Part shown: piece by piece, positions 5,220 to 8,161 of the stretch
Numbering within the stretch: the first letter of the stretch is position 1
Layout: the number at the start of each line of letters is the position of its first letter
DNA from: Oscillospiraceae bacterium
GTDB taxonomy: Bacteria > Bacillota > Clostridia > Oscillospirales > JAAYXM01
DNA: 64,000 nucleotides
Direction: 5' to 3'
Assembly: GCA_017435965.1 (NCBI GenBank)
Contig: JAFSEA010000042.1
Coordinates: 12,250 to 76,249 of the forward strand
Notes under the pieces: generated by a model
Database searches by the model: none
The model's input: the letters and a program-made list of their open reading frames with translations, nothing else
Told to the model about the DNA's origin: nothing
Program-made: the position numbers and the translations under genes

Positions 5220-7160
5220 GTGAAAAAGAAAAGCAGCTTCAGGGACATAGTGCTTTTTCTGATGATAATTGCAATGCTTGTCGCTGTGGCATCTTTCCTT
5301 TTTGAGGAAAGGGCTCCGGAAAAGATAAAGTATTCGGATGTGGTGCATCAGATTAAGGACAAAAATGTAGAAAAAGTCCTGATAGACGGTGAGGAAATTC
5401 TCAGGCTGACGTTGAAGCAACCTCACGGAGGAATGAAAGAGATAAGCTTTGACCTGTCTGATCAGTATATCCGCACAGAGTTCCAGCGCGATTGCGTGCC
5501 CCTTATTTTAGAACAGGTTAAAGAAGACCATATTGAATATGATATTCTTCCTGCAGAAGGTTCTCCCTGGTGGATGATGTTTTTGCCCTACATTATAGTT
5601 ATCGTTGTCATTGGAATCATGTGGTTCTTTATGTATAGCAAGGCAGATGGCGGAGCAGGTAAGGCAATGCGCTTCGGAAAAGCACGCACAAAGCTTGGAA
5701 GCGATGAGAAAAAGAAGGTAACTTTTGCCGATGTTGCAGGTGCAGAGGAAGAAAAGCAGGAGCTTTCGGAAATAGTTGATTTTCTGAAAGAACCGAAAAA
5801 GTTCACCGAGATTGGTGCAAGAATCCCCAAGGGCGTTCTTCTTGTAGGCCCTCCGGGAACAGGTAAAACATATATCGCGAAGGCAGTTGCAGGTGAGGCG
5901 GGAGTTCCGTTCCTCTCGATTTCCGGTTCCGACTTTGTTGAGCTTTATGTCGGTGTCGGTGCATCCCGTGTACGTGACCTTTTTGATCAGGCGAAAAAAT
6001 CTGCCCCTGCAATCATATTTATTGATGAAATTGATGCCGTCGGTCGTCACCGTGGCGCAGGCTATGGTGGTGGTCACGATGAACGTGAACAGACCCTCAA
6101 CCAGCTCCTTGTTGAGATGGACGGTTTCGGAAATAACGAAGGCGTTATCATAATTGCGGCAACAAACCGCCCGGATATCCTTGACCCGGCACTTATGCGC
6201 CCGGGAAGATTTGACCGCCAGGTTTATGTCGGACTTCCGGATCTCAACGATCGTGAAAAGGTTCTTGAAATCCACGCAAAAACAAAGAAGCTCGGAAACA
6301 ATGTTTCTCTCCGTGATGTTGCAAGATCAACAAGCGGTTTCTCACCGGCTGACCTTGAAAATCTTCTCAACGAGTCTGCACTTCATGCGGCTCGTCGCGG
6401 AGATACAAGTATCAACCAGAAGGATATTGAAGAGTCGATGCTCAAGATAATCGCAGGTCCTGCAAAGAAAGCAAAGGTAAGAAGTAAGCAGGTCAATAAG
6501 CTTACTGCATACCACGAAGCAGGTCATGCCATCGCAATGAAATTCCTTCCCACGCAGGACCCTGTACATCACATTTCAATTCTGCCCCGAGGTATGGCAA
6601 ACGGATATACCATTTCTTTGCCGCGTCAGGATGTTTATTCCGTGTCAAAGAAGGAAATGGAAGAGCAGATCGTCTCACTCCTCGGTGGACGTGTTGCGGA
6701 AAAGCTTGTGCTTGAAGACATTTCCACAGGCGCATCTCACGACTTGAAGCGTGCATCACAGATTGCACGCGATATGGTAACAAAATATGGTATGAGTGAA
6801 AAGCTTGGTCCCGTGAGCTTCGCAGAGGATAACGGAGAAGTATTCCTCGGACGTGATTTTGCATCAAAACGCACTTATTCCGAAGCTGTTGCAAGTGCTA
6901 TTGACGAAGAAGTTCGTGCAATTATCGAAGCGGCATACAGTAACTGTGAAAAGATTCTCACGGATAATATGGATAAGCTTCACGAGGTTGCAAACTTCCT
7001 CCTTGAAAAAGAGACTATGGAAGCAAAAGACTTCTACGCAGTATTCGGTGAAGATGTTCCGCCTTCAATTGCGGAAGAAACCGAAGATGCTCCTGCAGAA
7101 AATGTAAACGCAGAGGAAAACACGGAAGCAACACAGGAAGAAAACAAGGAAAACGAATAA
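5220..7160 (+). CDS. ftsH: ATP-dependent zinc metalloprotease FtsH
   Basis: Two N-terminal TM segments, AAA Walker A GPPGTGKT, Walker [12 protein letters not shown] region, HEAGH zinc motif. GTG start. Confidence 0.97.
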
Positions 7161-7163
7161 TAC

Positions 7164-7200
7164 AAAAGCTATCTGCAAAAAAATGCAGATAGCTTTTCAG
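7164..7200 (+). terminator. Intrinsic-terminator-like hairpin, copy 1 (13-bp stem, 6-nt A loop, short T tail) 3 nt after the ftsH stop
   Basis: aaagctatctgca-aaaaaa-tgcagatagcttt followed by tc. Identical to 7474-7507. Confidence 0.6.
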
Positions 7201-7473
7201 CGTGTCGAAAAACTTTCGACACGCTGGGAGGCTGTCCAAAAAGGTGTGAGATTTTCCGAATGGAACCCGAAGGTGTATGTTGACACATCGAGAGGTGACA
7301 CTTCGGGAAAAACAAGCGAAAAAGTCCTTGAAACTCGATGTTTCAAGGACTTTTGTGAAAACTATGCATCTTTTTGAAAATCAGGTTATTCGAAAAATCC
7401 GAGACGGAACGACCGGTTGTCGTTCCCTATATGCATTTCTTCGCTTGTGGTCTCGCACCTTTTTCGACAGTCT
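7198..7473 (+). other. Unclassified 276-nt hairpin-dense non-coding insert (candidate structured sRNA or MITE-like element)
   Basis: No credible ORF. Perfect hairpins at 7197-7225 (13 bp) and 7319-7353 (14 bp), and an 8-bp stem at 7405-7425. The long-range helix 7228-7250/7450-7472 pairs at 22/23 positions, with two G:U pairs valid only on the + strand. Terminal inverted repeats 7197-7211 vs 7459-7473 match at 13/15. Confidence 0.45.
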
Positions 7474-7513
7474 GAAAGCTATCTGCAAAAAAATGCAGAT
7501 AGCTTTTCTTTTA
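7474..7513. terminator. Intrinsic terminator hairpin, copy 2, probably bidirectional (ends the + strand transcript and the convergent SGNH hydrolase gene)
   Basis: Same 34-nt hairpin as 7164-7197, followed by ttttcttttatt. It abuts the stop codon of the - strand gene at 7514. Confidence 0.7.
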
Positions 7514-8161
7514 TTACTTTATTTCTTCAAATTTCTTTATCCATTCTTTTGTTATGAGAGCGTGACCCGAAGTGTTGGGATGAACTCCGTCGGTGAGCCA
7601 GTAGGAGGGATTTTCAGGATTATAGAGAGTATCAAACTTTTCCTGAAGCGGGATGAAGGGAAGATTATATTTTTCAGAAACTCTCTTTGCGGCAGCTGCT
7701 TTGTCAAGAACATCTGCGCGGAAAGCAGGATAAATCTCTTCGCCGCTTGCATTTTCGGATGTGCCGTTTCCTTTGAGAACAAAGGGTTCAAGAATCATTA
7801 TCTTAAGGTTTGGCAGAGCTTTTTGAAGCTCCTCAATAAGCATTGAATATACCTTTTCAAACTTATCTGTTGCAACGCCGTTGGGACTTTCCGAGAACTC
7901 ATGCCACACATCGTTTACTCCGATTAAAAGACTCATATAATCGGGTTTGAGATTTATGATATCACGCTTCATTCTGGCATAGATATCCACGATGCGATTG
8001 CCTGATATTCCGCGGTTTATAAACTCATATTCCTCTGGATAAGCAAGTCCGAGCTCTCCCGAGACCATTGTTGCATATCCGTGACCTCTCCAATCATTGC
8101 GCTCATAGGAACGGCCTGCATCCGTTATTGAGTCGCCTTGAAAAAGAATTACTTTCGACAT
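7514..8161 (-). CDS. SGNH/GDSL-family hydrolase (lipase/acylhydrolase-like)
   Basis: N-terminal block I motif ILFQGDSITD, block III GVND, C-terminal DGVHP (Asp-x-x-His). Confidence 0.85.
   Translation of the reverse strand: MSKVILFQGDSITDAGRSYERNDWRGHGYATMVSGELGLAYPEEYEFINRGISGNRIVDIYARMKRDIINLKPDYMSLLIGVNDVWHEFSESPNGVATDKFEKVYSMLIEELQKALPNLKIMILEPFVLKGNGTSENASGEEIYPAFRADVLDKAAAAKRVSEKYNLPFIPLQEKFDTLYNPENPSYWLTDGVHPNTSGHALITKEWIKKFEEIK

Follow-up and report, generated by a model that had tools for sequence, protein, structure and literature searches.

A probable miniature transposable element of Oscillospiraceae that inserts at terminator hairpins and duplicates them

Introduction

IS1272 and TnSha1, members of the IS1182 family from Staphylococcus, take terminator hairpins as targets without sequence specificity, in both orientations, and hit the same hairpin repeatedly (PMC4923244, PMC5678879). 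For a hairpin extruded as a cruciform, joining at the 5′ feet was predicted to duplicate the whole stem-loop (Wan et al., 2017; PMC5678879, Fig. 13, pathway b). Long and variable direct repeats are produced by the IS1634/IS1549 group, for which no model has been proposed and whose family termini read C-----YT (PMC2266710), and a 2024 review of prokaryotic miniature transposable elements with inverted repeats (MITEs) lists none with structure-defined, hairpin-length duplications (PMC10969869). In this study, we analyzed a 64,000-nt stretch of DNA (the window) from Oscillospiraceae bacterium GCA_017435965.1 (contig JAFSEA010000042.1, positions 12,250–76,249, forward strand), in which two identical terminator hairpins between ftsH and a convergent SGNH hydrolase gene enclose a non-coding insert at 7198–7474. 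Our analyses strongly suggested that this insert is one copy of a miniature, non-coding, non-autonomous DNA transposon, moved in trans, whose target is a terminator palindrome chosen by its structure.

Results

Insertion turns one terminator hairpin into two

The 34-mers at 7165–7198 and 7475–7508 of the window are identical, a match that occurred 0 times in 100 shuffles, and each forms a hairpin with a stem of 13–14 bp and a loop of 6 nt. Comparison with the rest of the family showed that C7198 is the first base of the element, and the target duplication of the window is therefore 33 nt (7165–7197 and 7475–7507). All features described in an earlier sequence-only reading are present, although most of its coordinates were one base too low, the insert being 277 nt (7198–7474) and the duplication 33 nt. 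One of its two proposals, a non-autonomous mobile element that had entered at a terminator hairpin or doubled it, is borne out below by the multiple copies, their terminal inverted repeats (TIRs), the locus-specific duplications and true empty sites. DNA loci fetched for comparison with the window are labeled by L-numbers (e.g., L001, L193).

When the inner terminal-repeat consensus was scanned against one genome per species, 31 matching stretches were found in a single goat-colon metagenome-assembled genome (MAG), Oscillospiraceae RGIG2118, many of them at contig ends, and one further copy in an Acutalibacteraceae MAG (L050). The four matches in other phyla (L021, L034, L045, and L049) lay inside open reading frames (ORFs) and were discarded as chance. 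By blastn, the search that had been advised for copies with the same ends, the RGIG2118 set (at least 31 in this one MAG) resolved into 15 complete copies of 254–257 nt and 16 left-end fragments ended by contig ends, with 92–98% identity among themselves and 80–85% to the window copy. The copies occur in both orientations at unrelated loci. Their alignment placed the ends of the element at CAGCGTGTCGA(T/A)AAA … TTTTTCGACAGTCTG, with TIRs CAGCGTGTCGA…TCGACAGTCTG (consensus CAG(C/A)(G/C)TGTCGA(A/T)AAA), and the outer termini CAGCGTGTCGAAAAA / CAGACTGTCGAAAAA agree at 13/15 positions. At the left end, the terminal repeat is directly followed by its own inverted copy, giving a perfect 13-bp fold-back with the loop AAC (H1, 7198–7226, plus strand, arms 7198–7210/7214–7226). 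The sequence-only reading had correctly taken the inverted repeat at the extreme ends and the repeated motif TGTC(C/G)AAA as transposase-type signals; over the 64 kb of the window this motif occurs 8 times, 4 of them within the insert.

For three RGIG2118 insertions, the flanking genes could be found again, either unchanged or at more than 90% identity, in contigs of other samples and MAGs. At the PFK site, the empty allele (L193) has one hairpin, and L192 and L196 have hairpin, element and hairpin with a 28-nt duplication; in another MAG (L197) the site is filled with a duplication of 31–32 nt, and in five further assemblies the element lies reversed at the same foot, joined to foreign downstream sequence. 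This terminator has been struck repeatedly, with different duplication lengths and in both orientations. At the CLC site, three empty alleles (L216–218) contain one 38-nt hairpin, and the filled allele (L051) has the exact 38-mer on both sides. Two HAD sites likewise have a single hairpin in their empty alleles (L204/L205/L208 and L212–L215) and are filled in L203:2132–2520 and L032:2120–2460, where the hairpin copy at the right end keeps the ancestral loop and the copy at the left (H1) end has a reverse-complemented one. The comparison of empty and filled alleles therefore demonstrated that insertion turns one terminator hairpin into two.

The reverse-orientation joins at the PFK terminator (L194, L195, and L198–L200) carry downstream sequence from other loci, and the right-flank hairpin of L195 is the same as that of L050. 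This pattern suggests element-mediated rearrangements or repeated insertions. Secondary recombination between dispersed copies may be the simplest account of the foreign-flank joins and of the copies with unlike hairpins (L050, L195).

Exact direct repeats abut both ends of the element at seven sites (23, 28, 29, 29, 31, 33, and 38 nt). At five of the seven, the repeat is the exact perfect palindrome of the local terminator, and at the other two it starts 1 nt (window) and 5 nt (PFK) inside the 5′ arm of the palindrome; the A-tract is left on one side of the element and the T-tract on the other. Over all subfamilies, direct duplications of 21–41 nt occur at at least 13 unique sites and match the target palindrome within ~5 nt, and this tracking of palindrome length implies that both strand-transfer sites are set by structure. 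We further tested the association with hairpins by counting junctions that lie no more than 3 nt from a hairpin foot, where the hairpin had to be perfect and at least 8 bp long, using 40,000 random positions of the same DNA as control. Such a foot was present at 25 of 26 unique left outer junctions (p ~1e-52) and 17 of 20 unique right outer junctions (p ~1e-34), compared with 0.75% of random positions. The flanking palindrome itself differs from locus to locus in sequence, arm length (9–18 bp) and loop.

Distribution and subfamilies

A scan with the right-terminal 20-mer retrieved at least 120 metagenome stretches; among the matches listed, none shares the interior of the window element. Taken over all collections, the right 17–20-nt terminus was found in these at least 120 metagenome loci (many from human gut), 7 viral contigs and replicons of Subdoligranulum variabile. 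Of the 120 metagenome loci listed, 88 belong to a GC-rich family (176 or 221 nt) whose termini are those of the window element, and its copies also lie between hairpin copies in L131 (24 nt), L135 (21 nt), L173, and L175. A third subfamily of 173 nt was found in S. variabile OY725846.1 (L180:5950–6230), flanked by a duplicated 41-nt hairpin that is the longest clean duplication seen. Across subfamilies the copies measure 173–277 nt, and their ORFs are all spurious, none having a Pfam match. One terminus and one footprint are thus common to three subfamilies whose interiors are unrelated, which points to a single transposase type acting in trans. The element class is widely distributed in gut Clostridia.

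Several side observations concern these copies. The GC-rich family comes from human-gut metagenomes (among L053–L172, e.g., L053, L131, and L135) and two viral contigs, its only common part with the window element is the CAGACTGTCGAAAAAGG terminus, and one motif, ccttcccc…ggggaagg, recurs in variant form in many of the hairpins it targets. In an IMG/VR contig (L179:2500–3904), the terminus abuts a hairpin foot and a 1.26-kb segment with neither a right terminal repeat nor a transposase lies between direct repeats of 145 nt (95% identity), which may be a one-ended or rearranged insertion. In addition, at least 19 RGIG2118 contig ends lie inside element copies (among the MAG loci L017–L051), Logan k=31 contigs end within the 34-nt repeat (ends of L004 and L005), and an ENA contig ends just ahead of the central palindrome of the element (end of L003, equivalent to window position 7312).

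Search for a transposase

The fetched loci searched for a transposase total 1.2 Mb, including ~230 kb of the copy-rich MAG RGIG2118. All window ORFs of at least 425 aa are housekeeping genes and none is a transposase, and no transposase was found among the ORFs lying inward of the terminus at 120 metagenome and 7 viral loci. A recurrent cluster of 458–495-aa ORFs in this position proved to be a host lipoprotein/SH3-like gene at one common site, and the remaining inward ORFs were solute-binding proteins, radical-SAM enzymes, glycosidases and wrong-frame ORFs. A tblastn search with ISKpn6 gave no IS1182-type match (cognate DDE_Tnp_1 or DDE_Tnp_1_6 transposase) in the 1.2 Mb of fetched DNA. Against the plasmid collection, blastn of the whole element gave no match and blastn of the terminus alone gave only S. 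variabile MITE copies and chance matches; three further scans of viral collections yielded nothing new. An CCACTGTCACATTTAGG beside blaKPC was considered as an ISKpn6 end and rejected, as the full copy shows inverted repeats GGCTAGGAGYCTGCGCGGCAGA that are unrelated to the element.

That the MITE is derived from, and mobilized by, a DDE transposase of the IS1182 family (IS1272/ISClbu1-like) is a serious possibility, if short of a probable one, and this enzyme type is the leading candidate. The target choice of IS1272 and TnSha1 described above speaks for it, as do the termini of ISClbu1 (AGGGGCTGTATCAAAA), which resemble the inner TIR (GGGAGGCTGTCCAAAAA) and are each followed by their own inverted copy in a fold-back like H1; an IS1182-family member of E. 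faecium has GGGACTGTGACATAAG, with the motif GACTGTGAC. Direct repeats of 0–60 bp are reportedly given for the IS1182 family in ISfinder or reviews based on it, and palindrome duplication in this family may already be familiar to specialists. Nevertheless, the likeness to the ISClbu1 terminus extends to only ~12/17 bases, the termini of ISKpn6 are unrelated to the element, the fetched DNA, including the ~230 kb of the copy-rich MAG, holds no IS1182-type ORF, and the footprint of IS1272 and ISClbu1, hairpin loss with no duplication, is opposite to that seen here.

We also inspected ISClbu1 at three independent sites (four records), all of which read A-tract, insertion sequence (IS), T-tract, with no duplication. 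These insertions lie in C. butyricum megaplasmids (L219:809–2637 and L222/L223/L224:252–2080), and their flanks look like terminator A- and T-tracts with the stem-loop replaced, extending IS1272-type behavior to a Clostridium element. Separately, a plasmid of Anoxybacillus amylolyticus (L183:1–2790) carries an IS1182-like transposase gene interrupted by a group II intron (ltrA); the right terminus of that element is a long fold-back, CTGACTCCAAAAGTCCGC…GCGGACTTTTGGGTCAG.

Fold of the element

The element (7198–7474, plus strand, CAGCGTGTCGAAAAA to TTTTTCGACAGTCTG, ends set by alignment of 15 copies) is folded far beyond expectation on either strand, with z = −13.9 for the plus and −15.0 for the minus strand against shuffles. 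Almost every copy keeps H1, where a single compensatory change (A:T to T:A) is seen, and the H1 loop is flipped in L031 and L022. The inner left terminal-repeat copy AGGCTGTCCAAAAAGGTGTGAGA (7229–7251, plus strand), matched twice in the window against 0 expected, forms with the right end a long-range helix, 7229–7251/7451–7473, with 20/23 Watson–Crick plus G:U pairs. The right TIR occupies 7451–7474 on the minus strand and reads inward CAGACTGTCGAAAAAGGTGCGAGA, its 17–20-nt terminus being the one that recurs elsewhere. Inside this helix lies a second one (5′ arm 7312–7323, 3′ arm 7437–7448, both plus strand), with two compensatory double changes relative to MAG-type copies (columns 120/258 and 126/252). 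The central perfect 15-bp palindrome (7320–7354, stem 7320–7334/7340–7354) is terminator-like, with A- and T-tracts, and differs from the MAG type by four compensatory double changes, none broken. Altogether six base pairs have changed on both sides (four in the central palindrome and two in the long-range helix) and none has been broken; the fold of the element is therefore maintained. A 23-nt insertion specific to the window subfamily (7400–7426, plus strand) bears an 8-bp hairpin, 7406–7413/7419–7426, and is missing in 14/14 other aligned copies. H1, the central stem, the 8-bp stem and the long-range helix had all been recognized from the sequence alone, and every helix listed there was confirmed.

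Such a fold invites the other proposal of the sequence-only reading, that the region is an independently transcribed structured small RNA (sRNA) gene of ~245–275 nt with its own terminator, to which the repeats are incidental. The extreme fold (z about −14), the six compensatory double substitutions between subfamilies that leave the helices intact and the plus-strand location of the G:U pairs in the closing helix would all agree with such a gene. However, the minus strand folds at least as well, and a promoter-like site was found neither within the element nor ahead of it. The absence of known RNA families, which had been surmised earlier, was upheld by an Rfam scan of the whole window at gathering thresholds (0 matches), and a permissive scan of 7000–7700 gave nothing at E<0.05 (best sub-threshold score 27.9 bits against a cutoff of 48). 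Dozens of copies, with TIRs and target duplications, are scattered over unrelated loci in either orientation, and near-identical strains differ in whether the element is there. Moreover, co-variation of the arms is expected at the DNA level, from paired transposase-binding repeats and palindrome maintenance, and the G:U positions, on which the earlier argument for a plus-strand RNA rests, are shared by descent among the copies. We consider an sRNA gene very improbable, although individual copies may have been exapted as RNA of the 3′ untranslated region (UTR).

The ftsH–SGNH junction

In the window, ftsH (5220–7160, plus strand; Pfam Peptidase_M41, AAA, and FtsH_ext) is the gene whose terminator was the insertion target. 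The left hairpin copy (duplication 7165–7197, stem 7164–7177/7184–7197, loop AAAAAA) comprises the whole bidirectional terminator stem-loop and was scored terminator-like on the minus strand. The right copy (7475–7507), delimited by the repeat and terminator analysis, is followed by the original T-tract TTTTCTTTTATT, and beyond it lies the SGNH/GDSL hydrolase gene (7514–8161, minus strand; Pfam Lipase_GDSL_2), which is convergent with ftsH. The first copy begins 4 nt 3′ of the ftsH stop and the second ends 6 nt short of the SGNH stop; both had been correctly placed beside these stops, with slightly smaller spacings. The earlier opinion that the insert has no credible ORF holds; the 189-aa ORF at 7277–7846 (plus strand, antisense to SGNH) has no Pfam match. 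A 64-aa ORF at 7183–7377 (plus strand) was annotated in the element by gene callers in public assemblies, and both ORFs are likely spurious. A low-stringency blastn search found no further copy of the element within the window.

In relatives with ftsH beside SGNH (L012–L016, ~74% SGNH identity), a single bidirectional terminator hairpin without insert lies between the two stops, representing the ancestral state, and its sequence varies by lineage. Terminator hairpin sequences usually differ between lineages. L007 (90% SGNH identity) was considered as an empty site and rejected, since the neighbor of SGNH there is not ftsH. In sister lineages (81–84% nucleotide identity), SGNH and ftsH are separated by a gene for a 612-aa Peptidase_S8 protein (L191:3698–5536, L185/L186:3701–5542); it has its own unrelated terminators and is absent both from the window (7161–7513) and from the distant L012–L016, so the gene content of this junction varies independently of the element. 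Adjoining the S8 gene is a gene for an IS200/IS605-type Y1 transposase (L185:5735–6217, L186:5735–6235), which appears unrelated to the element studied here.

The presence of this Y1_Tnp gene in L185/L186, together with the hairpin-rich and hairpin-associated nature of the element, could be taken to indicate a palindrome-associated element (PATE) of the IS200/IS605 type, which a Y1 HUH transposase would move as single-stranded DNA; subterminal hairpins at both ends mark such elements. IS200/IS605 elements and PATEs have neither TIRs nor a target duplication, and their insertion point lies 3′ of a short oligonucleotide that is conserved (PMC3119063, Table 4), whereas the present element has clear TIRs, long duplications and no common flanking oligonucleotide, which makes such an origin highly unlikely. 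Neither a Y1 transposase whose end-hairpins match H1 nor insertion without duplication was seen. Identical direct palindromes of arm, spacer and arm around a short insert also have a superficial likeness to lox or dif sites, as if a tyrosine/Xer-type recombinase had integrated a cassette with the 34-nt palindromes (13–14-bp arms, 6-nt spacer) as attL and attR. The flanking palindrome is a different one at every locus, as noted above, and a recombinase would therefore lack a shared core; the empty sites identify this palindrome as the host's own terminator, and the elements have TIRs, so that we give this explanation almost no credence. Finally, De Bruijn assemblies can mis-join at repeats, and Logan and ENA contigs break in this region, yet an assembly artefact or local tandem duplication of spacer is practically out of the question: the 460-nt junction was assembled independently in several samples of the same lineage with 0–3 differences (L001, L002, and L006), hence the insert is no artefact, homologs of the insert lie at dozens of other loci, and the 277 nt between the repeats are not a copy of neighboring sequence, which excludes the simple tandem duplication named earlier as a refuting scenario.

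Discussion

The terminator-seeking element of the ftsH–SGNH junction is a MITE by every structural criterion except a known parent, and it is unusual for a MITE in its structure-defined, hairpin-length duplication, its strict targeting of terminators and the flipping of loops. As we infer it, with cruciform geometry, DDE chemistry and transposase identity all at this level, the terminator palindrome would be extruded as a cruciform or otherwise hairpinned, whereby its two 5′ feet would neighbor each other across the four-way junction and a transposase could join the element ends there. The stagger in linear coordinates would then equal the palindrome length, and gap repair would copy the hairpin on both sides, giving a target-site duplication (TSD) of the whole stem-loop with the A-tract staying left and the T-tract right. 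In the window, the single bidirectional terminator common to ftsH and SGNH was struck and duplicated, so that each gene still ends at a hairpin copy. Tentatively, this may represent an undescribed mode of transposition, in which the transposase reads the four-way cruciform junction, joins the ends at the 5′ feet and duplicates an entire terminator of any length, the enzyme being either IS1182-like with reversed attack polarity or from an unrecognized family. The loop-flipped copies would in that case have arisen when gap repair switched templates from one of the two complementary single-stranded hairpins to the other, a possible explanation of an asymmetry that rests on two sites.

Several observations weigh against a MITE moved in this way. 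First, no transposase with matching ends (CAGNNTGTCGAAAAAGG termini) was found in the window, the 1.2 Mb of fetched loci or the plasmid and viral collections, although absence from these samples is no proof against a parent; the chemistry and enzyme family are therefore putative. Second, the IS1182-family members checked (IS1272/TnSha1 in the literature, ISClbu1 here) delete the hairpin and make no duplication. Third, the reverse-complemented loop of the left-end copy at two sites is unaccounted for by a plain staggered cut and fill-in. Fourth, some copies have a hairpin on one side only or unlike hairpins on the two sides (L018, L050), and such copies need secondary recombination or alternative repair. 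Fifth, the empty site that had been proposed as a check exists as a single hairpin in the distant L012–L016 and as true empty alleles at other insertion sites, but no exact one for the window's own insertion was found among sister lineages, because these carry the extra S8 peptidase gene there.

The alleles before and after insertion provide natural evidence that DNA structure, in place of a fixed stagger, can determine the target duplication of a bacterial transposon, an outcome that was drawn hypothetically for IS1272 and is undocumented there, and they may bear on the long variable direct repeats of IS1634/IS1549. Duplications of 21–41 nt would fail the short, fixed-length TSD filters that MITE finders generally use; this class is therefore probably under-annotated. 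Furthermore, the insertions separate a gene from its effective terminator by 170–280 nt of highly structured DNA and contribute dispersed homology, which is relevant for the evolution of 3′ UTRs and for genome rearrangement in uncultured Oscillospiraceae, where the PFK hairpin is joined to different downstream loci by strain. At the window locus, read-through from ftsH would extend the 3′ UTR through the element as far as the distal hairpin, which keeps the T-tract. If the terminator is indeed preserved on both sides, essential genes, ftsH among them, could be colonized at their ends with little cost, and a shape-reading, terminator-seeking transposase that spares gene function would, if identified, be an attractive tool.

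Comparison with known systems

Like the present element, IS1397, ISKpn1, and the IS110-family ISPpu9/ISPpu10 insert into extragenic palindromes. Unlike it, these ISs that target repetitive extragenic palindromes (REPs) are specific for one REP family and insert inside the palindrome or at a fixed site with short or no duplication, and the IS110 elements have no TIRs (PMC1525189, PMC12288879). Bacterial MITEs (Correia, RUP, BOX, SPRITE, ERIC, Chunjie, and MITEAba12) are likewise small, non-coding, multicopy, intergenic and strongly folded with TIRs, break up assemblies and can be a component of 3′ UTRs; the target duplications they make are short and of one set length (2–10 bp), in contrast to the hairpin-length ones observed here. 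Bacterial class C group II introns insert just 3′ of intrinsic terminator stem-loops. These retroelements exceed 0.6 kb, have a ribozyme fold and usually also a reverse transcriptase, and make neither TIRs nor a duplication. Their resemblance to the element lies in the association with terminators, and the Rfam scans performed here gave no group II match.

The IS1634/IS1549 group, which we compared by its literature description and for the footprint only, shares long (more than one helical turn), copy-variable target duplications with the element, although most IS1634-family members make AT-rich duplications of 5–6 bp, whereas here the length is set by the palindrome. The closest systems are IS1272/TnSha1 and ISClbu1, which as here target the stem foot of intrinsic-terminator hairpins of any sequence, insert repeatedly and independently at one hairpin in both orientations, and have termini able to fold back. 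They are autonomous elements of 1.8–1.9 kb (IS1272/ISClbu1), compared with 173–277 nt and no ORF, and they remove the stem-loop without duplication (PMC5678879, PMC4923244; ISClbu1 flanks), while the present element keeps and duplicates it. Pathway b of Wan et al. has the same joining geometry as proposed here. It does not predict the loop-flipped copies, and it was put forward as a theoretical alternative without examples, for which the present element supplies at least 13 natural sites with empty-site controls.

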